Shown in pieces: positions 205-37,927 of a stretch of 37,927 nucleotides of DNA. A program made the position numbers and the translations under genes. Source of the stretch: Hydrurus foetidus. Lineage: Eukaryota. Position 1 is the first letter of the stretch; every line of letters begins with the position of its first letter. The stretch lies in contig UYFQ01000481.1 in the NCBI GenBank assembly GCA_900617105.1, forward strand, positions 1 through 37,927, given 5' to 3'. The notes under the pieces are model-generated. The model saw only the letters and a program-made list of their open reading frames with translations, made no database searches and had not been told where the DNA came from.

Positions 205-628
205 TTATGTAATTCAATATTTGCAGCGTATTTCTTACTTGCTGTCTTCCACCTCTCTATGGCCACCATGCCGGCGTTATCCGGCGGGTCGTCTGGCTCC
301 ACGAATCCTTTGTAATCTGAGAGGACCCCATCTATGCCAATGATTTCTTTAATGGAAGATTCGTAAGCACTATACATATAAACTCTTAAACATTCAAGCC
401 ATTTCAACACGGCTTCCGGATCTGCCACTTGGCCTCGTGGCAGATCCAGGTAAGCACCTACCTCGGGCTTCCTACCTTTTACTATGGGTTTATGGGGCTC
501 GCCTTGCCCCCTACCATATCGACCCCTGCCCCCGCCACGGGACTGGAATCTTCCATCGCCTCGTCCTCTCATCCTTGCAATCTTTTTGCAACTTACTATC
601 TAAGCTATCTAAGGATGACTGTCGTTTA
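205..628 (-). repeat. Second copy of Copia-1 leader and gag N-terminus (tandem unit sharing the LTR)
   Basis: 205-852 is nearly identical to 5956-6601. Both encode MRGRGDGRFQSRGGGRGRYGRG... Confidence 0.9.
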
Positions 629-901
629 TGTTGGAATTCTGGGCGATTTACACGGAATTTCTTCCGAGTTCCCAAACGATCCCTGCACTTCCGACTGCTA
701 GCAACGCTCGCTCAAAAGAGAAGAAGACGTTCTATTCAGTAAGTTGGATTAAACGACAGTGACATGCTGTCGATTACATCTAGGTAGCATAACATGAGTG
801 CGAGGGTTGCGGTCAATGTTATCGCTGAATGTACGTACACCCGCGCATGAAAACAATCATACATCACACAGGGATCCTAGTCTAATCCGGATATCACAAC
901 A
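629..901 (-). repeat. Copia-1 LTR (3' LTR of the main unit, 5' LTR of the tandem unit), about 273 bp
   Basis: Has TGTTG...CAACA termini and is preceded on the minus strand by the purine tract ATGGGGGTG (902-910). It matches 6378-6602 plus 28898-28998. The outer boundary is ambiguous by about 3 nt. Confidence 0.8.
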
Positions 902-5142: not shown

Positions 5143-6321
5143 TTACTTTTCCGAAGAAGTGTGACGCGCAGGTGCGTTCTTCCTCGGCGGCTTCTTACAC
5201 TCGTACGCGTAATGGCCCTCCTCCCCGCAGTTGTTGCACGCTCCGTAACGGGTACCGTACTCCTGTACGGCACCACCTCTCTCTCTCTGTGGGGTGGCCT
5301 CCCTATCCCTATAGGGAGTGCCTGCCCTCTTACTGCTCTCGCTGCCGGGGGTGTCGAATCCTCCCTTCTCAGCTCCGCTCTCTCCGCTGCCACGGCCTCT
5401 GCCGCCTCTCCCGGTTGAACCCGCTCTCCCACCCCGACTGGCCGCGAAAACGTTTCGCTTCTCCGAGTTCGGGGGAGCTCCTCCGTGGACGGGCCTTCCC
5501 ATAAGGAAGTTGGCCGCGTCCTGGTTGGCATCGGCCATGGTCTGCGGCCATGACCGAACCTTATTTTTAAACGTATTGATATATTCTAAATAGTTTGAAT
5601 TAAGTCCAGTTACAAATAATACAGCATGGAACTCATCTGTGTGATGGGCTCTTCTTCGTCGGCGATCCTGTATGACTCGCTCTTGACAAATAGAAGCGTC
5701 CTACACCTACTAAAATATGCAGCTAGATCTTCGTTTGATCATTTTATTATTGTAAAAGTTTCTAACTGCTGTAGTCATATTATATACATCTCCATACCTT
5801 TTGTTGTTCATGTGTGTTGCCACCACACATGTCAACACCTCCAGAGGATCGCAGTCCTCCATGGCTCTCTTGCCTGCCGGCATCTCGTTCACCCTTGTGA
5901 TCGAGGCCTCTGACATTTGACCTAATATACACCATACAATTTTGCGCAGTCTTTTTTATGTAATTCAATATTTGCAGCGTATTTCTTACTTGCTGTCTTC
6001 CATCTCTCTATGGCGACCATGCCGGCGTTATCCGGCGGGTCGTCTGGCTCCACGCTCCTTTGTAATCTAGAGGACCCCATCTATACCTATGATTTCTTTA
6101 ATGGAAGATTCATAAGTACTATACATATAAACTCTTAAACATTCAAGCCATTTCAACACGGCTTCCGGATCTGCCGCTTGGCCTCGTGGCAGATCCAGGT
6201 AAGCACCTACCTCGGGCTTCCTACCTTTTACTATGGGTTTATGGGGCTCGCCTTGCCCCCTACCATATCGACCCCTGCCCCCGCCACGGGACTGGAATCT
6301 TCCATCGCCTCGTCCTCTCAT
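5143..6321 (-). pseudogene. gag: Copia-1 gag (several frameshifts)
   Basis: RG-rich N-terminus, a DPLEVL block, and the CCHC knuckle CNNCGEEGHYAYEC before the stop at 5143. Confidence 0.88.
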
Positions 6322-6366
6322 CCTTGCAATCTTTTTGCAACTTACTATCTAAGCTATCTAAGGATG

Positions 6367-6377
6367 ACTGTCGTTTA
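6367..6377 (-). promoter_or_regulatory. Non-tRNA primer-binding site of Copia-1 (TAAACGACAGT), complementary to LTR 6499-6509
   Basis: Abuts the LTR end (CCAACA), has no TGG, and is a perfect 11-nt complement of a site inside the LTR. The same pair occurs at 618-628 / 750-760. Confidence 0.75.
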
Positions 6378-6602
6378 TGTTGGAATTCTGGGCGATTTAC
6401 ACGGAATTTCTTCCGAGTTCCCAAACGATCCCTGCACTTCCGACTGCTAGCAACGCTCGCTCAAAAGAGAAGAAGACGTTCTATTCAGTAAGTTGGATTA
6501 AACGACAGTGACATGCTGTCGATTACATCTAGGTAGCATAACATGAGTGCGAGGGTTGCGGTCAATGTTATCGCTGAATGTACGTACACCCGTGCATGAA
6601 AA
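6378..6602 (-). repeat. Copia-1 5' LTR, inner part
   Basis: Matches 629-853, then breaks at 6603. Confidence 0.88.
6556..6602 (+). repeat. 47-bp direct repeat (left copy) flanking the Helitron-like insertion
   Basis: ttgcggtcaatgttatcgctgaatgtacgtacacccgtgcatgaaaa, identical at 28898-28944. Confidence 0.95.
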
Positions 6603-6925
6603 TAAATTTTAACATGAACTCAACCGTTTGGACTAGGTTTACGTTAAAATTCTTTGTATGACCCAAATTTCTGGATGTAATATTAGTCTCCCTCAAAATA
6701 GCTGATTTGATTAGTCCCCCCGTATTTTTCTTTCGAAGGGGGGGTCGAACCCCGTATACTGAAGTGCGCACGTATAAATTCTGCATACGCACTTTTTTTA
6801 GTACGTACTGCAAGTACGTATTGGAATTTTGCTCTTTTCACACGATGGTGTGAAATAGTCAGCTGACAGGAAATTATACTATATCGTTAGTTATACAATT
6901 TAACCAAGTATAATAAGTGCACAGT

Positions 6926-11000: not shown

Positions 11001-11517
11001 TGTCAGCTTATATCAGCGATAAGTGCTATTTATAGCTGTATATAGCCGTTATAATCATCGATATGTAGCTAGGAATATCTCATACGTAAGTACATATATG
11101 CAGTTCGTAACTACATACAATGATCACTTTAAGTCGCTTCCTCAATGCTTATCGTATCATGTATAGTGTCATTGTTGTGGGTTCATGACCGCATATTTAG
11201 TATAGATTCCAGATTTTATGGTATGAGGGTACGAGAACTTTTCCATGTGTGATGTATGGTTTGAAGTATATCTCGTCGCTCGTCAACGTAGGCTTAAATC
11301 TACGAGTTCAAATTCAAATCTGAAATGGATGACGAATGAGAACTTATTGACTTGCGGCAGGTAGAATGATGTTCATCATGCAACGTCTTTTCAATTCGCA
11401 TGTGTTTAGTTTCTAATTCTTAACGAATATTCGATACTCAACTTCCAAACTTCTTCGCCTGGTCGCTTGTGCTTTTGGCCTCCTGCGACCTCATTGATCG
11501 TCCCTGATCAACTGACA
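11001..11517 (+). repeat. Copia-2 5' LTR
   Basis: TGTCAG...CTGACA. Only one difference from the 3' LTR was noticed by eye (11486 C vs 18411 T). Confidence 0.97.
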
Positions 11518-11526
11518 TGGTAGCGA
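11518..11526 (+). promoter_or_regulatory. Copia-2 tRNA primer-binding site (TGGTAGCGA, initiator-Met-like)
   Basis: TGG directly after the LTR. TGGTAGC matches the conserved 3' end of eukaryotic tRNAiMet. Confidence 0.75.
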
Positions 11527-21671: not shown

Positions 21672-21889
21672 TGTAGCCATATGCCATTTAGTATGGCATT
21701 ATGAGCTTCTAGGACTATCGGTCTACAGATCGGTCTACAGGGTCGTAGGCTTCCAGCCTCACCCTTACAACGTATACTCTGCTATCATCTAGCTAGTCCA
21801 CGTAGAAGTTACCCTAGCTACGGCTTTCCCCTGTAACTAAGACTTCAGCTCCTCTCCCTTCCTTTCTCTCTTTTGCCATTAGGACTACA
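21672..21889 (+). repeat. Gypsy 5' LTR (218 bp)
   Basis: About 4 substitutions and 1 indel relative to 27734-27950. Confidence 0.96.
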
Positions 21890-23542
21890 ATAGATCTATT
21901 CCGTCCACTCTTCTTTAGCTAATACCTCCGACTTCTACCTCTCCTTCCCGATACGCCACCTCCAGATCCCAGCCTCTGTCGACAGAGACGCGGACTCGAG
22001 TGAGCCTTCGTGGATAAGTCTTTTTCGTTACTTAAAATCCATCTCAGCGATTAAGTTCGTCTGCAGACGATTTCTCTGGGGATTTTCACCGAGACCAGTT
22101 TCGTCGGTTTAACTATCACAACTTGGATCCTCGAAGCTTTCAAGCTTGTGCACTTTCCAGTTAATTCTAGATCGTTTTGCACGATTGCCAAGGGTTAGTG
22201 AGCAACGTTAAGTCGTTTTCTCGCCTCAACTGTGCTTGGTTGGCTTTAAATAGCTATTCTCACCGAGATTTTTGACGCATCAAAAATCTTGACTTCTCAC
22301 CATATACCTGCTTCGTTTCTGCTGTTGTTTCCAAGGTTTTCTACCTTACAACACAGGGGGGAAACTCTGGCAAAAAAATTTCCAGAGTTAACTCTCTTCA
22401 GAAGAAATTTTGACAGTAATATCTCTTAAACCATATCAGGCTTAATTGCTTGATATGTCGAGCGGCTCTTCTAACACCGTTCCCACCTCGGGAATATTGC
22501 GAACTCCTGATGGCTTTCAAACAGCATCGGGTAGATTGCGTCAATAGCAATCACAGTCGAGTAATTCTTCGACAAATCAACGCTCGGGTTCATCACCAAT
22601 AGCATTCGATAATCGTCGTTCGCAGGGTTCATTACCTGACAATGTACGTCGCTCTCAGTCTTCGACTGTTCAATTACAACAACCTTTGTTCGTATTGAAA
22701 GGGCCGCACATCTCTCCTGAAGAGGCTGTTCTGTTTAAGACACAGGCGATACGTGTCCCTGACATCGGATCGTTTACGCCATGAACAAACGCGGGTCAGT
22801 TGCGTCAGCAACGATCGCAGTCCAGAGTTATTTCTCTTGTTGGAACAAACCTTTTGAAAATTATTTTCTATCGCATAACGCGCTTAATTGCTACTTATCG
22901 GGGGATGTTTCCCAAGGGATATACTCCACCAAAGCTCTTCTTCATGAAGAATTCATCGTCGACATGCGCCTTCGCGTTGAGCGCCATGCTTTCGACAAGA
23001 GCAATCGTCAAACCTTCTATTGCATTGCAAAAGGATTTGTTCGAAGGTGTGATGTCACTCCGTCCAGCTCTCAGCTGGAAGCTACAAAGGCAGAACCCTT
23101 CTTTCTAGACCAAACTGCATGACTCCGTACCACGCGTGTTATCAGACCTTCCTGGCTTTACTCCATAACTCGAATCGGGGACTTTTTATTAAACTGTGCA
23201 GCCCACTTTTAATCCCGTAGCGCACAAGGTGTCGGGGCGATTCGAACCAACGATCTGTTTGATCCCAGACAGCTAACCACTTAAGCGATAGCTGGTTCGT
23301 GCTCTTCATGTAAAATGTAAGCGTTTCAATACCGTTATTGGGCATCGTAACAACTCTGCGCAGAGGACTGTATAACTGTCAATTTTTGTGTCGGTGTAAA
23401 TACATCTCGAAAATGCACACCGGATTATAAATATTTTTTTTTTTCAAAATTATTATTTTTTTTTTTTCGAAGTGATATGCAGAATTGAATTAATTGCATC
23501 ACAGTTGAATCCAATGCTTTACATCTTTGCTATAATTCACTT

Positions 23543-26500
23543 ATGCCTTTGGTTGTGTGTAGTGGCTTAGATCGTACTGGCTATAATAATAACACTGTAA
23601 TCGACATAGGTATTAATTTCAAATCGATTAATAATGTATGCCATACCATATATTTGACTGTAAGGGTCAAAGAATCGTCGCTCATAGACTTAATTATTGG
23701 CAGAGTCTCTTTAAATAAATACTCGTTTTTTAAATTAACTCCTTTCGCTCTTGGGATAAGTGAGGAACACAAACCGATTTCCTCGTCAAGTTTCGATTGC
23801 TCAGCGTGCGACGAACTATCTGATGTCGAACCGTTACTTTCGCAACGGTTCACAACAATATTATCCAGTGATAGGATTAATAAAAATTTGATAAAAAAAT
23901 CAAAAAATTTACCTATCGAAGAACAGTCAGTTGCACAAAACTTTCTTCTACTTCTAATATCCTAAGGGACTTCGGACAACCTACAACCGAAGGGGAAAGA
24001 CTGACTATCTGTGGTCACTCATGTTGTTCGTCCGGGACAGGGTCCTGCCCGGCATTATTGGAATTAGCTACTCCAGAGGCCGGCTGTGAGAGGGGTCGGG
24101 CAGTTCATGGGAGTATCGTTCACCCTGAACTGACTCGTGACGGTGATACACCTCCCGAAGATGGATTAGATTACATCCCTCCGACACCAGGGTTTCTTAA
24201 CGACGAAACGCATGACACTTTAGGCCACTCGCCAAGTGTTGTCATTATCAGTAACGATGAGATTGACAGTGAGAAAACCGATACTTTCGGACCTTTCCTC
24301 CAAGGGACTAGCCCTGATTTACCGCCCGACAGTAACGGGTCAGACAAGTTTCTTGACGAAATAACTTTCGTTGGTATGGAAGACCAAATAATTGCAATGA
24401 AACTTCTCTGCTTAGAGTTTCGCGACTTGTTCAGCAATAAAATTGCAACTCTACCAGCTAAACTAGATCCGTTTAGACTGGATGTGAGGGAACAAGAATG
24501 GGAAATATCCGCAAACCGGACCCCGGTTCGACCCCAATCATCTCGTAAAGAGATTGAAATAAAAAGCCTTAGACGAGATGCTTTCATTAGGTATCATCGA
24601 ATCTTCGAGTGCAGTCTATTACAGTCACCCTGTAGTAGTACAAAAGACAGCTGATACGTATCGATTCTGCATCGATTACAGACTCTTAAATGCGTGCATG
24701 CAACCAGCTAGTTTTCCGCTACCGAATATTCGGGGTCTTTTTGAACGCATTGGCCGTCACCAAGCCGATATTTTCGGTGTAATGGACTTAACTGCCGGTT
24801 ACCATCAAGCTCCGCTTTATGAACCACATCGCCATTTTACGGCATTCATATGCTATGCAGGCATATTCCATTTTACTAGACTCCCCTTTGGACCTAGGTG
24901 TGCTCCCTCTTACTTCCAAGAGCAGATGGCCACCAAAGTCCTTCGCGGTCTCATATATATGATATGCGAAATATATCTTGACGATATAATTATATATGGC
25001 CGGGGATTTGCAGAGTTTCTTAGTAGACTGAGAGATATATTTTTACGTTTACGTGAATTTCGCATTTTGCTAAAAGCAAAGAAATGCAAATATGGTTGTA
25101 AAAGCCTAGAGTATGTTGGTCGTACAATCTCAAAAGACGGATTATCCATGTCTGAGACAAAAATTGAGTCTATACTCAACTTTCCAAGACCACAGACTTT
25201 AACAGCACTTCGCTCGTTACTGGGTCTTGCGAACTATTTTAGAGGATTTGTACCAAATCACTCTACTATAGTCGCACCTTTACAGAGATTAGTTGATTCT
25301 AAAGCTCACAAAAAATCACCAATTATTTGGACACCTAGTGCTATACTAGCATTCCAACACGTAAGAGTGGCTATATCAAGATGCCCTCTAATGTATTTTC
25401 TTGATGAAAAGTCAACTATTAAGTTATACACTGACGCATCAGATTATGGAATCGGTGGTGTGTTAATTCAAGTTGTTAACAATGAATGGAGACCTATCGC
25501 TTTCATAAACAAGTCACTTTCTGCAACACAATTAAAATGGTCCACGATACAAAAAGAAGCTTATGCTATCTATTACTCGTGTCAACAACTTGATTCTTTA
25601 ATTAGAGATCGTGAGTTTGAAATACATACCGATCACAAAAACATTACATATATGAAACAAACACCAACTTCAATGGTGTCACGGTGGTTTATAGCTTTAC
25701 AAGAATTAAATTTCAAAGTTATATTTGTGAAAGGCACACAAAATCAGCTAGCGGACGATCTATCAAGACTTTGTCCCAATATAGCTAAGTTAGCTTTACC
25801 GTTCACACCGGTAGCTACTAGTAATAATGATATGGTCGTTGGTGACCAAAGGACGGTGGACGAGGACGATGGACGAGGACGGAGGCGAAAAACGAAGATG
25901 GGGGAGATGGAAGAGTATTCTTATAGTTTACAGCGAGGTATGTGTACTCGCGTGGAAACTTACCGGACTTCACTACAGTACAGTGTATCCGTACATGCAG
26001 TACAGATACAGTGAGGCTACAATGAAATGGTATTATCTGCACTGACAGTTATACCTGAACCTAATCCAGAACAACTTGAATGGATGGAACAATGTCACAA
26101 CGCAATAGTTGGACATGGTGGTTCTTCTAGAACTCTTACCAAACTTTTCAGTTTAGGTCATGCGTGGAAGTATATGCGACAGCACGTACGTATGTTCATT
26201 GCATCTTGCCCATGCTGTCAAAAGATGAGCATGATAAAGGTACCGGTTGAAGTTCAACATTATGTGACTTCTTCTAACCGACCTTTTGACGTCGTGAATA
26301 TCGATTTTATCGGGCCATACCCAGACGATTCATACGTTCTTGTTATTATTGACACATTTTCTAAATGGATTGAACTTTTCCATTGCAAAGATGCCACTGC
26401 TAAATCAGCATGTGAGGCACTCTTGCAACATTTTGGTCGCTACGGCGCTCCCAATATGATTAGATCTGATAAAGGTTCTCATTTCGCAAACGATTTGATT

Positions 26501-27345
26501 AAAGAGTTTCTTGTTTTAACAGGTACTCCACACAACCTTACATTATCTTATTCTAAACAAGAAAATGGGGTAGTTGAACGTGCTAACAGAGAAGTCAACA
26601 GACATCTTCGCGCATTAACCTTCGAAACTAATGATGTAGATAACTACAGATTAAGTCTTCCATTTGTACAAAGAATTATAAATAGTTCTATACACGAAAC
26701 TACAGGCGTAGCACCTGCTAGTATGTTGTTCGGGAATCAAGTAAATCTTGATAGAGGTATTCTTATACCCAATCCGGTAATTCGAAACACTGAAAAGAGC
26801 TCAGCTCTTATATCTAATATGTTATACATACAAGATCAAATAATGCTAAATGCAATTGCAAAAGTAACACTAGCAAAAGCAAGACATTTAGTGAAAAATG
26901 CCAAACCATTGACTGTATTTCCAGTTGGTCCATATGTTTTAGCAAAGTATTCTGTGGGGCCACCGACTCGTTTACACACTAAATGGCAGGGCCATTTCAG
27001 GTCATTTCGTATATCGATTCAGAGTACACATTACTTAATTTAGTGAATAAATCTGAACGAATTACCCATGCAAGTAATCTGAAGCAGTTTATTTTTGATC
27101 CTTCAAGAACATCTGCTCCAGATATTGCTAGACGAGATTATACGGAATTCTTTGTTGAATCCATTGTAGAACATCGTGGAGACACAAAACGATTAAATTC
27201 GTTGTTTTTTAAAGTAAAATGGCTCAATTACGATGATTCACATAATTCATGTGAACCATGGAATGCATTAAGAACATGCGACAAATTACACGATTATCTT
27301 CGTTCAAATCAAAAGCTCAAGAAATTGATGCCTAAAAACTTCTAA
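23543..27345 (+). pseudogene. pol: Gypsy pol: protease C-terminal remnant, RT, RNase H, integrase, chromodomain
   Basis: DLIIGR (PR). RFCIDYR, DLTAGYHQ, LPFG and YLDD (RT). TDASDYG, TDHKN and ADDLSR (RNase H). HHCC, IDFIGP/SDKG/VERAN and GPF (IN). FFVESIVEH...FKVKWLNY...EPW (chromodomain). Confidence 0.95.
25828..26021 (-). repeat. Probable solo LTR inserted antisense between RNase H and integrase
   Basis: TG...CA ends. The minus strand starts TGTAGCC like the host Gypsy LTR and has TATAAG followed by a pyrimidine run. Imperfect 4-bp TSD ataa/atga. Removing it restores the open frame. Confidence 0.6.
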
Positions 27346-27733
27346 ACATTAATTTGTTATTATGAGTGGTATCTTTTGAAGATTTTTAGCCTAATTTTTT
27401 GCCCTCTGGGTTTTTATGGTTTTTTAGTCAGTAAGAATCTGACATACCCACATCATAATATATGTTATTTTGTACATACATTAATTTGTATTGATTTACA
27501 AAATAAACTTATTTCCACGACCACTCCCGACTCTCTTTAAATTTTGTTATTTTGTAACATTTTGTTTTTACTATTTTATATTGAAATCTTTTCTTTTTCT
27601 TTTATATTTCTGTAATCGAATTACTTTTCTTGTAAATATTTTAGTGGAATTTTTTTTTTTTTTTTTTTGAAAAATAGCTTAATTAGAGATAAGTGGGAGT
27701 AGGGTCATTCTCTGTGGAGATAAGTAGGAGTAG

Positions 27734-27950
27734 TGTAGCCATATGCCATTTAGTATGGCATTATGAGCTTCTAGGACTATCGGTCTACAGATCGGTCTAC
27801 AGGGTCGTAGGCTTCGAGCCTCACCCTTACATCGTGTATTCTGCTATCATCTAGCTAGTCCACGTAGAAGTTACCCTAGCTACGGCTTTCCCCTGTAACT
27901 AAGACTTCAGCTCCTCTCCTTCCTTTCTCTCTTTTGCCATTAGGACTACA
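27734..27950 (+). repeat. Gypsy 3' LTR (217 bp)
   Basis: Preceded by the PPT gagataagtaggagtag. Confidence 0.96.
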
Positions 27951-28897: not shown

Positions 28898-28998
28898 TTG
28901 CGGTCAATGTTATCGCTGAATGTACGTACACCCGTGCATGAAAACAATCATACATCACACAGGGTACAAGATCCTGATCTAATCCGGATATCACAACA
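28898..28998 (-). repeat. Copia-1 5' LTR, outer part (includes the right copy of the 47-bp duplication)
   Basis: Matches 807-901 apart from a 6-bp indel and a few substitutions. Confidence 0.9.
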
Positions 28999-29825
28999 CA
29001 CTCTACCCCCCTCTTGGTTTACCGATCACAGAGTAGTTCCGGAACGTGAGATTTCCAACAATAGAATACCCTGCGTTGGTACATAGGGTTTTTTTCGTTT
29101 TCCTATTGCCTATGCATAGGGTTTTTTACCGTTTCCCTATATAGGTTATCCTATAGGGTTATGGTATGTTCGTTCGCGGTCAGTACGGTACATGAAAAAA
29201 AATGAAAAGTGTACGTACGTATTTTATTCATGTCACATGAAAATAGAGGTGTCGTTCGAACAGTGCATGAAATTCAATTGACATATGATCAAATCGTGGC
29301 ATTCAGCTTTCCTAGTGATTCAACAATATCAGTAAGGCGTTCACTCCTTCGTCCACAAGTTCTTGGCCGTAGTCAGCGTCGTCTACTTCGTCAATCTCAT
29401 CGGAAACTTTGCATGATTAAATTTACTAGGCGTATAGATTGACAGATTGTAACCAAACTTGTAGTAAATTGCGAATCGTCGTATTCAAGTTTTCTGCAAT
29501 TCAATTCGAATTGCACCCAGGAGATAGGAGACAGGAGCCCAGTGCTGCCAACAATGTGGTGGGGTCGGAAATGTGGTGGGTTCTCTCAAAATGCCCCATT
29601 TTGAACCCCCATAAATATATTTCTCAAAAACTGAATATTTTATTTGAGTAATTGGATAGCTGTGATTCCATTTTCAAAATCGAATTTATTTGAAACAAAT
29701 TCTGAAATACAGATATTCCCTTAGGAAATATATCGCTGGTTTTTAACTTGATTCTGGCTGCATTCTCAAGGTAAGTTAGATATCTTATCGTGTCAGAAAT
29801 GGTCGAATTAGTGGAGATGTGAAAA

Positions 29826-31819: not shown

Positions 31820-31999
31820 TACCAACGCAGAGAATGCCTTCTATACATTCAAGAGTGCACAGCACAGCAGGGTTGTGTTTGATTCGTAAGCTCCTTTCCC
31901 ATGAATCAGAGCATCGGAAAGTCTACGGTGGACAATAGTTAGCACTCTTCAAACACCCTTCAGCGATAGAATTCGTTGACAACATCCACCTGACGCGGA

Positions 32000-32962
32000 A
32001 TGCGGGGGTCCGCTGTATTAATCTACTCAGCTTTCATTGAGCTGTGTAATCATCTGATTTTTGCGGGAACAGTTTGCGATCGTTTGTCTTCTTTGCAATT
32101 TTATGAAGAGAAGTTGTACTCACAAAACGGTGAAGATGGTGTTCTAGTCACCTTACTAGATATCATCAAAGTTAAATACAGCTCTTACGTCGAGTTTGGC
32201 GTGGAGGATGGCATTGAATGCAACACCAGGATACTACGAGAGCATTTTGGTTTCCACGGTCTCATGATGGATGGAGGTCACGAAAATACAGCGATCAATC
32301 TTCATCAGGAGCTTATCACTGTGTCGAATGTTTTGAATTTGTTTCAAAAATATCACGTTGTACGCGATTTTGACGTCTTATCGATCGATGTTGACATGTT
32401 CGATTTTTGGATCATGGCAAAATTGCTTGGCGAGGGACATTACCGTCCAAGAATAATTATCGTCGAAACCAATCCAACTCTGTGCCTGAATATTGGAAAA
32501 ATCGGGCCTAATAGAATGAAAGACTACTCACAAATAAACTCCCTGCCACTGACGGTCATTCATCCTAACATGACGGATCAGATAGCATGGGATCTCTCAC
32601 GATACGCCGGAGCAAATCCTCTTTCCTTTCAACTGCTCGGTAAGGAGTTTGGATACGAAACAATTCACTGTGAGAGATGTGGAGTAAACTGCTTTCTAGT
32701 TTTACGTACTGAATTGCCGATTGAGTGCCAAAAAGATTACCCACTACCAACGGTTCCGTATCCATGCTTCGGCACGGCAAGAACAGGTCTGGCCTATCCT
32801 GGTCATGAAATTGATCTCCTAGAGAGATCGGCTGTGAAAGTGAGTCCACAATTGCTTCAAGGTATCAAATCAGGGAACTTCACAGTCGCTGATGTGGAAG
32901 CTTCGACTATAAGCTGCAGCTCGCGAATGGATAATCCTAGCATATTACAGCGCTACAGTTGA
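32000..32962 (+). CDS. FkbM-like SAM-dependent methyltransferase-fold protein with hydrophobic N-terminus (host gene, intronless)
   Basis: YSQNGEDG, YVEFGVEDG.ECNT, GLMMDG, DVLSIDVD..DFW and PRIIIVE.N. Confidence 0.75.
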   Translation: MRGSAVLIYSAFIELCNHLIFAGTVCDRLSSLQFYEEKLYSQNGEDGVLVTLLDIIKVKYSSYVEFGVEDGIECNTRILREHFGFHGLMMDGGHENTAINLHQELITVSNVLNLFQKYHVVRDFDVLSIDVDMFDFWIMAKLLGEGHYRPRIIIVETNPTLCLNIGKIGPNRMKDYSQINSLPLTVIHPNMTDQIAWDLSRYAGANPLSFQLLGKEFGYETIHCERCGVNCFLVLRTELPIECQKDYPLPTVPYPCFGTARTGLAYPGHEIDLLERSAVKVSPQLLQGIKSGNFTVADVEASTISCSSRMDNPSILQRYS

Positions 32963-34486: not shown

Positions 34487-35021
34487 TCTCCTCTTGATTC
34501 AGGGTAAACACTATTACCAAGATGAAGTACGATAAAAGTTGTGAGATGACGTAATGAAGCAATGTCTTGAGTATCTCCAAGGGCTCGCTTGCTAAACCCA
34601 GGGAGCAAAACAAATGAGCTACAATGACATACCAGATACAATCTTTTGAGTGACTTCGCTTTGATTTTTGGGAATTCTCTGGCACAGTCCAGTAAATTGC
34701 AGCCCTTCTTTTCCGCTCACAGTGCCTCTGATGGAGCACTCAGTCAAATAAAATACATCAGTGCATATCCTCCTTTATTATGACTAGCAGCCTCATTGGT
34801 ATGTCGACAGTCGACCCATGCATCATGCTATTCCAGTGCCCGGCATTAGGCCACGGACAATAATCAGGCCATGTTGGGATATGCGTAGACTAGGAATCCC
34901 TTTGGGGATAATATCATGAGCGATATCCAGTCCGGATAGTTGTAGCTTAGGCATACGTTTTATGATTCCTTGTAGACCGGTTGATACTATACACCAACCC
35001 GCGGTCACATCAGGAATGAAA

Positions 35022-35274
35022 TGTTGGAGTGATGAATCACACCAAGTAGCATACTAGCAGTTAGTATACAGCTGATGAAGTGGATGTTTTGACATGCTAA
35101 CCACTTCTTATTAAAAGAGACTATATGACATCACGTCATTATACCTACACTAGTTGACTTTTCTGCTGCTCTGGCTAGGCTTGCATTTCACAAGGTGTAT
35201 TCTCAACGAATCACTAGCAACCTACCAGTTCAGTACCGGGATCAGTTATCCCTAAAGGAACGGTTTTACCAAGA
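35022..35274 (+). repeat. Inferred Copia-3 5' LTR
   Basis: TGTTGG...CCAAGA (one mismatch from CCAACA). The partner LTR is not in the window. The end is supported by the adjacent self-complementary PBS-like site. Confidence 0.55.
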
Positions 35275-35301
35275 TAATAAGAAGCCTTTAAAGACTTTAT
35301 C

Positions 35302-37927
35302 ATGAGTCAAAAAGGTTCCAAAGGTGGTGCGCCACCGAGGAAAGATGAGGGTGCAAATGGATCCCTTGAAAAGAGGACCATACCCGCAGGATTGGTTGAG
35401 ATCAGCCATGATTGCCACAAGCAGTGGGATTCAATCATAGCTAAGCTGAAGGCGTACTGCAGAGATAACTATCAGGATCTACAGTCAATCTGTCAGGATC
35501 CGATGAAAGTGACTGTTGCACCGGCATACCGGAAGCACCTACCACCGATGGCCTCTGAGGCAGAACTGGAGGCGATCAGAAGAGAACGACCCAACTGGAG
35601 ATAAAAACAAGATCTTTATGGGACTACTCAGCGGCAGGAACAACCAGTACCTCAAGTTACTGACCCAACAGAGGATCGACAAGGAGAACTGCTACACAGT
35701 CATTCGAGAGATGTGTTCAGCACAGCTCAACTCGCTACTCGCTGTCGACGCTGCATTCATAGCCTGCGAAGAAGACGACCCACTCGAGTTGCTTCGTGTA
35801 ATCAAGCGCCTCGTCACGGCTCGACCAGATGGAAATGAAGAACTCGACCGTCAGAAAGCCCTCAGCGAGTGGTTTGGACTGAGAATGGAACATGGCGAGG
35901 TGATTCTAAGTTATGGCAGGCGTGCTATCAAAACATTTGAAAGACTCACCACGACTGGAATACCAGTGGAAGAACAGCCAAAGCCAAAGCAGCAATCAAT
36001 GCGCTTCATTGATGGACTCGATGGATCAGTTCCGGCATACCACGGTTACAAGATGTACCTGATCAATGCCAAACAGCAAACGGATCGAGACATATATCCA
36101 GCGACACTCGTCGACGCAATCCTACGAGCAACAAGATTTGAGACTTCATTCATTGAGAATATCAATGCAACCCTCCCGACAACGCCACATTCAGCATTCG
36201 GAGCTCAGCAGCAGACTGAAGATCGAGGAAAAAAGGGTGGCAAGCAGTTGGGAAAGGGCAAGGGTCACAAAGACAAACCTTCCGGCAAAGACACCAAGGC
36301 TGAATCTGACAAAGACAAGCCAAAAACAAAGTTCGAAGGCGAGTGTTTCAACTGTGGCAAGTTTGGCCACCGAAAATCTGAGTGCCGGAGCAAGGCGAAA
36401 GACGAGCCGAAAAAGGTGCGATTTGAGAAAAATCCAGAGCCGGCAAACAAGGCGAGCAGTCACTCCTCATATTACACATCATTTGGCAACATGCATGATG
36501 AAGAGGATGAAGAAATGGAAGATGATGATCGAAGATGCAATGTCGCGTTGAAAGGATCTCCACCCGACGACGGTGACGGAATCAGTCTACAGGCCACCCG
36601 AACTTCAATCCAACCATCATCGACCGAAGCGATTTTCGACACCGGTGCCACCGGCACAATCATCACAAGCGCTGATGTTCTCTCAGAGATTTGGACGTGT
36701 CGGCCAACTGTGTTTAAGGGCTTGCATGGATCCTTGACAGTGACAAAAGTCGGCAGACTTGGTGATATCGGCATCGTTCACTTCGATGATCGGGCGGCGC
36801 TCTCCATCATTTCAGCTTCGGATATCCTTTTGCAAGGACACAACTGGGAGTTCCAACGTGGAGGACATGTTGATCAAGATGCTTTCCTGGTGCACACAGC
36901 AAAGCAAACCTATCGCTTTCAACATCGAGGTGGACTCTATGTTTGCGATCTTGCATCACGACCAGAGCCTCGACATGAGAGCTCCAACAAGTCGAGATTA
37001 GAGTCAGCCAACCCCGCCATCGCTCTCAATAAGGCAGGAGGACCTTTTTCTCAGCTCCTTTGCCAACAACAACGGCAAATGAGGCAGCGTACTCCAAGCG
37101 CGAGGTTGCTCGAAGCTTCGATGCCCGACGGCTACAAGCAAGCCTTGGATTCCCACCCGACGCCAAGATGATCTCTGCTTTGAACGCCGGAGCATTCCTC
37201 AACTGCGACATCCTTCCTGAAGATGTTAATCGAGCAACTGCGATCTGGGGTGCCAACATCGCTGCTCTGAAAGGGCGAACAGTTCGAGCCCGACCATTTC
37301 CAGCATTGCAAAGTCACCGTGATTTTAAAAGTCACCGTGATTTTAAAAGTCACCGTGATTCTGATGAGCAACACATGCATTGTGATGTCATGTTTGTCAA
37401 TAAGCAACCATTCCTGGTTTCCATCACACATCCTCTTGGCATTGTCCTCGTTGCTTGCGTGGAGAATCTCACAGCGCCAATCCTGAGACAAAGCATCAGG
37501 AGGATGTTCGGCACCATCGGATCCCGCAGTATCAAGATCACCCGCTTCACCAGCGACAATGAACGAGGGATCGCGGCGCTTGCAGGAGACATGAATGCAA
37601 TGGGCGTGGCCGTCTCTCTCGTCGGACCAGGTCAGCATGATCACATCGTGGAGCGGATGATCCGCCACCTGAAGGAGACCATTCGGGCCACCATACACAG
37701 CCTACCCTACCTAGTCGCTGACGCGATGATGAATCACTTGGTGCTGAGCTGCTCCAAGAAACTACTGTTGTTCCCTTCGTCCACACGAACGGACAAAATA
37801 TCTCCCTTTGAGGCCTTCTTCGGGAGAAAGGCTGATACAAAGATGGACATCGGTCCACCTTTCGGCACCTACTGTCAGGTCACCAACCGCACCATGTCGA
37901 ATGGCATGGACCAGCGCACGATTGGAT
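35302..37927 (+). pseudogene. gag-pol: Copia-3 gag-pol (frameshifts near 35580 and 37040)
   Basis: DDPLELL, CFNCGKFGHRKSEC and IFDTGATG. An unlisted frame reads LGFPPD...DVNRATAIWGANIAALKGRT, HCDVMFV, TSDNE and VERMIRHLKE. Confidence 0.92.
37310..37360 (+). repeat. 18-bp tandem repeat, about 2.8 copies
   Basis: aaagtcaccgtgatttta repeated; in frame it reads (SHRDFK)n. Confidence 0.95.

Follow-up and report, generated by a model that had tools for sequence, protein, structure and literature searches.

Near one end of a 37,927-nt stretch of DNA from Hydrurus foetidus (contig UYFQ01000481.1; the whole stretch is called the window below), the Copia element Copia-3 carries a putative primer-binding site (PBS) that matches its own long terminal repeat (LTR), which raises the question of whether this element and its relatives prime reverse transcription with their own RNA instead of a tRNA. 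Eukaryotic and rich in repeats, the window contains three Copia elements and a single Gypsy element, whose features are listed in Table 1, and no tRNA genes were found in it. The best named eukaryotic match of the neighbouring host gene (56%) carries the label Ectocarpus fasciculatus; this gene (31994-32962, + strand) has no Pfam match, close environmental homologs, and distant bacterial homologs. Public sequencing runs that contain the Copia-3 stretch come from freshwater, sediment, and glacier, one public run presumed to be RNA (its label is a guess) yielded a single LTR-only Copia-3 contig, and a scan of viral contigs found no relatives.

Table 1. Coordinates of the LTRs, pairing arms, and coding region of the four elements, numbered from the first letter of the window
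Feature	Position	Strand	Remarks
Copia-3 5' LTR, TGTTGG...CCAAGA	34872..35274	+	403 nt; contig divergence on both sides
Copia-3 initiator-like CCA	35101..35103	+	A35103 is the putative transcription start, unpaired with the PBS
Copia-3 predicted self-primer arm CTTCTTATTA	35104..35113	+	exact reverse complement of the PBS
Copia-3 PBS TAATAAGAAG	35275..35284	+	adjoins the LTR end; no TGG
Copia-3 gag (CCHC), protease, non-HHCC integrase	35302..37927	+	frame breaks near 35580 and 37045; RT beyond the window
Copia-1 upstream LTR copy	6367..6509	-	arm 6509-6499 ACTGTCGTTTA; LTR end 6378; PBS 6377-6367
Copia-1 downstream LTR, 901-629	618..901	-	arm 760-750; second PBS 628-618; tandem arrangement
Copia-2 5' LTR, 11001-11517, and tRNA-type PBS TGGTAGCG	11001..11525	+	internal control; HHCC integrase
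Gypsy element, LTR TGTAGC...CTACA	21672-27950	+	PBS position 21890-21899; 4-bp target duplication GTAT

The boundaries of the Copia-3 LTR were fixed by comparison with contigs from public runs. Beyond position 35274 these contigs turn to unrelated sequence (three contigs in one run and four in another), and upstream of 34872 they likewise diverge, with two of the loose ends bearing a purine tract. The LTR is therefore 403 nt long, and the PBS starts at the position directly after its last base. No variant at 35273 is present among those listed from the public-run contigs, so that CCAAGA is taken as the end of the family; this end is one mismatch away from CCAACA and, together with the TGTTGG start and the purine tract in other copies, agrees with the LTR ends of Ty1/copia elements. 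The end at 35274 had been proposed earlier from the letters of the window, and it is now backed by the contig divergence without recourse to the 3' LTR. Over most of its length, the gag-protease-integrase region shares 80-88% identity with the full-length polyprotein P0121, the closest full-length relative of Copia-3, in which PF07727 lies downstream of the integrase. Copia-1 has an RVT_2 domain of its own (E = 2e-22), and its RT shares 31% identity with that of P0121, which makes Copia-1 and Copia-3 distant families. Both show the Ty1/copia gene order and an RVT_2-type RT, in Copia-3 by way of P0121. We conclude that Copia-3 and Copia-1 are Ty1/copia LTR retrotransposons outside the Tf1/sushi group.

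The exact complementarity between the Copia-3 PBS and the LTR arm that directly follows CCA, first reported in the earlier note, was found again. When the 403-nt LTR was shuffled with its dinucleotides preserved, a pair of at least 10 nt arose in 2 of 5000 shuffles (P = 0.0004; P = 0.001 when 0-2 nt of slack were allowed), and a comparable upstream complement exists for 48 of 37,494 window positions. Boundary-anchored 10-mers, whose frequent appearance in shuffled AT-rich controls was to have counted against the pairing, are thus rare. The helix is also present in the predicted fold of the RNA, with pair probabilities of 0.63-0.90. The primer had been described as 11 nt long; only 10 of these 11 positions are paired, because A35103 faces C35285, where no T variant is listed. 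A second helix had been proposed between TAAAGG in the LTR and the CCTTTA after the PBS; both motifs are present, but their role as a helix is unsupported, since such pairing is no commoner than expected by chance (p = 0.46), 6 nt being reached by 16% of swapped pairs, and in the predicted fold CCUUU pairs downstream and not with TAAAGG. Loose contig ends at 35108 and 35302 may belong to a sister family whose primer arm is longer by one T and whose PBS is longer by one A; they place an A opposite +1 after the PBS, and the two ends lie on separate contigs.

The corresponding pair in Copia-1 extends over 11 of 11 nt, was matched in none of 5000 shuffles, and likewise forms a helix in the predicted RNA fold. 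Three segments on the minus strand add to the picture of this family: at 205-901 the downstream LTR is followed by the second PBS and then by the gag start, 5956-6612 holds the upstream LTR without roughly its first 35-40 nt, and 28898-29010 carries an orphan purine tract and the initial ~100 nt of an LTR of the Copia-1 type. The TGG PBS and the HHCC motif ascribed earlier to Copia-2 were both seen again, and the longest self-pair of that element is just 3 nt. The Gypsy element has neither a TGG PBS nor a self-complement (4 nt at the longest). The palindrome ATAGATCTAT follows its 5' LTR and is reminiscent of the palindromic site of fungal GalEa elements.

The frequency of the pair was determined among related loci. 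An alignment of 52 homologs led to 96 loci (78 from metagenomes and 18 from MAGs), selected by similarity to the non-HHCC clade; the RNase H end is present in 86 of them and a complete LTR junction in 28 of those. LTRs were taken to start behind the purine tract and to end at candidate sites with at most one mismatch from AACA; for most loci this rule set the LTR end, maximising over the candidates, and the controls were run under the identical rule. After removal of two junctions without a start and one duplicate, 25 were scored, and a perfect self-pair of 10-17 nt was present in 21. Pairs of at least 10 nt were obtained with 29 of 600 LTRs swapped between families (Fisher p = 1e-21 for 21/25 versus 29/600, with loci treated as independent) and with 25 of 500 shuffles. 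None of the 25 PBSs begins with TGG. The four misses comprise two 9-mers, a locus whose pair lengthens to 16 nt if the end rule is relaxed (L047), and one with 7 perfect nt and a longer pair if G-U is admitted by eye (L041). From a further 33 long 3' tails, taken as a second batch, 25 junctions could be scored (L049 and L072/L073 overlap elements seen earlier), of which 17 reached 10 nt; two of these are unrelated inverted repeats, leaving 15, compared with 24 of 600 swaps. Among the eight misses in this batch, inspection by eye showed no PBS region in four (L005, L040, L044, and L059), and L051 pairs over 9 nt. The pairs of L076 and L078, just 7 perfect nt each, differ from one another by a compensatory change; L050 has a true LTR-PBS mismatch, its PBS no longer fitting its own LTR. 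We conclude that self-pairing is a real, clade-wide feature. The loci L079-L096 are Copia elements on eighteen GTDB bacterial MAG contigs, most likely as eukaryotic contamination of the bacterial bins.

The two arms also change together. Across five hand-picked pairs of close relatives (L045 figures in two of them), all 15 PBS differences are mirrored in the LTR arm and the pairing is perfect, and in L032 and L036 a one-base indel is common to both arms. From family to family the PBS almost always changes in sequence and length, even where the RTs are 70-86% identical, and it matches the LTR of the same element; many PBSs start with TAAT or CAA. The argument that pairing kept despite sequence change points to function and not to chance had been made from two families, and with 21/25 and 15/25 junctions and the paired changes it holds far beyond them.

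The anatomy of the arms was compared in 40 elements, namely 38 loci chosen for having both arms and the two window elements; for four of them the anchor was reset, either with the strict rule or manually. In 35 of the 40 elements a C-A junction lies at the start of the LTR arm or no more than 2 nt away, and CA accounts for 5.7% of the dinucleotides in the LTRs. Such anchoring fits an initiator, so the complementary arm would be the 5' end of the element RNA. The A at +1 is paired in 26 of these 35 elements and unpaired in nine, including Copia-3. The base that faces the unpaired A is A in 5/9, C in 3/9, and G in 1/9 (L001, L058, L060, L073, and L094), which possibly reflects untemplated addition at the primer end. 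The deduced primer length ranges from 9 to 17 nt over the 35 elements, which rules out a fixed 11-nt primer, so the length of 11 nt attributed to both window elements is not a rule. The ACT...TTA frame noticed in these two is common to some elements but is not clade-wide. U5 and the leader pair no more than they do in swapped families (n = 39; p = 0.46 for length, p = 0.60 for energy), and on this basis a helix between them was dismissed as a trait of the clade. TATA-like boxes were found in just 2 of 32 elements. A purine-purine-TT motif (AGTT, GGTT, or GATT) occurs 3-10 nt past the primer arm in 18 of 40 elements, an uncontrolled count; the AAC at the LTR terminus is a possible pairing partner for it.

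The base that follows the T pairing with +1 is C in 13 of 26 elements, versus a background of 20.8% (p = 0.0009), and in 10-12 of 21 when close relatives are collapsed. The second batch gave 1 of 6, and both sets together give 14 of 32 (p = 0.003, post hoc). Reverse transcriptases copy the cap G, and a C after the PBS would follow if a capped primer were copied into the plus-strand PBS. We regard this C, noticed post hoc, as a weak hint of RNA cap copying. The accessible text of PMC3035444 is uninformative on the cap question.

The claim that the trait tracks with the non-HHCC clade agrees with the integrase data as far as they go: HHCC is present in 0 of 64 integrase N-terminal segments printed, some of which begin downstream of the motif region, and the contrast itself rests on one HHCC element and on loci picked by similarity. 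The median pairwise RT identity among the rows of the tree is 39.7%. The only named integrase homolog is a protein of the diatom Cyclotella cf. meneghiniana, and the RT of the Cyclotella cluster nests within the RT tree of the loci (a quick tree with long branches and without named references). This homolog and the Ectocarpus-labelled match of the host gene together make an ochrophyte alga the likely host. The non-HHCC clade is likely CoDi-like, membership in CoDi being judged on a tree without named CoDi sequences.

Copia-3 and Copia-1 thus have a PBS at the LTR end that is complementary to the LTR and has no tRNA complement, as in self-primed elements. From the sequence, we put the probability at about 0.8 that the 5' end of their own RNA, and not a tRNA, serves them as the primer for reverse transcription. 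RNA polymerase II would start transcription at the C-A site, and the first 9-17 nt of the RNA would fold back onto the PBS. RT/RNase H would then cut past the paired stretch and free a 3'-OH, as in Tf1, from which minus-strand DNA would be primed. Plus-strand synthesis would copy the primer into a new PBS, so that the arms would stay matched. Weighing against self-priming are the lack of a conserved leader helix of the Tf1 type, the unpaired +1 A in 9/35 elements, the loci L076/L078 and L050, and the scarcity of TATA-like boxes (2/32).

The alternative that survives best, which we consider quite improbable, holds that the helix is functional in a structural capacity (packaging, dimerisation, or translation control) and that priming is by something else, for instance a protein hydroxyl or a trans-acting short LTR transcript. 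Covariation shows pairing and not priming, and the variable primer length and the absence of conservation of the leader helix that Tf1 needs are in keeping with such a role. However, minus-strand synthesis has to begin at the base next to the LTR end, which is just where the downstream arm starts, and there is no tRNA PBS. A structural helix would have no reason to hold the register of the LTR end, and a short transcript acting in trans would amount to self-priming in another form anyway. Far less credible is a host RNA primer, either a tRNA fragment or another small RNA, with the LTR copy as a by-product; half-tRNA priming is known in Copia lineages according to the accessible part of PMC6317226, and the recurrent TAAT or CAA start of the PBS also speaks for it, but the PBS varies among nearly all families, even those with 70-86% RT identity, and always in step with the LTR of the same element. 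Chance complementarity has a negligible probability and is ruled out at the level of the clade, for although the arms are AT-rich and swapped controls hit 10 nt in about 5%, 21/25 stands against 29/600, the window boundary was fixed independently, and the changes are compensatory.

Self-priming by the RNA 5' end is our preferred reading. To our knowledge, tRNA-independent priming has been demonstrated for Gypsy-type Tf1 only and predicted for one plant Copia lineage. Clade-wide use in a large and diverse algal Copia clade would add another origin of the trait, probably an independent one, within the other LTR superfamily, and it bears on which came first, self-priming or tRNA priming, a question raised in the accessible text of PMC3601003. 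With such a clade one could test whether the RT/RNase H of a Copia element is able to cleave an RNA:RNA duplex and how the position of the cut is measured at primer lengths of 9-17 nt; PBS filters based on tRNAs will overlook such elements. A more specific proposal, tentative and on balance unlikely, is that a deep algal Copia clade devoid of the zinc finger would have acquired self-priming independently of Tf1/sushi and TAR, in a minimal form free of a pretzel and with primers anywhere between 9 and 17 nt long; its reverse transcriptase would read the capped primer, while this is still attached, through to the cap and so leave the C after the PBS. If true, this C would be a genomic record of cap copying and would mark the transcription start of each family.

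A literature search, with most subscription journals and Repbase outside its scope, returned no report of self-priming in CoDi-like or algal copias. CoDi elements are described as diatom-specific in PMC2806351, whose main text, in its accessible portion, makes no statement on PBS or priming and whose structural supplement may bear on the point; CoDi-like elements belong to Branch 1 of Ty1/copia by the accessible text of PMC2774666. The likeness of the present elements to CoDiI and CoDiII lies in the Cyclotella integrase homolog, whose cluster member nests in our RT tree. The TAR elements differ in belonging to a plant lineage, where they sit among ordinary HHCC plant copias, and were compared with ours by description. 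They are alike in being Ty1/copia elements, Houba and Osr-1 included, that are predicted to self-prime in the accessible text of PMC6317226, which also records self-priming in Tf1/sushi and Tcn1. The fungal GalEa elements are Branch 1 copias without a tRNA PBS and with a conserved hairpin site; the partner there lies downstream of the LTR and, in the part of PMC5445492 available, the authors found no LTR complement, whereas here the partner is within the LTR. The closest likeness in anatomy is to Tf1/Tf2 of Schizosaccharomyces pombe, Tj1, Tosmo, and the Tf1/sushi group, in which, by the accessible parts of PMC4600332, PMC5341516, and bioRxiv 2022.12.06.519325, the PBS adjoins the LTR, complements the RNA 5' end, and serves without a tRNA primer. 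The Tf1 pretzel has three duplexes and requires the leader helix (bioRxiv 2022.12.06.519325, in its accessible part), whereas the leader-U5 duplex is unsupported here, the primers are 9-17 nt long, and the mechanism is a prediction drawn from sequence. Tf1/sushi elements are Ty3/gypsy chromoviruses, whereas the elements described here do not qualify as chromoviruses and have the Copia order, with integrase before RT, and RVT_2.
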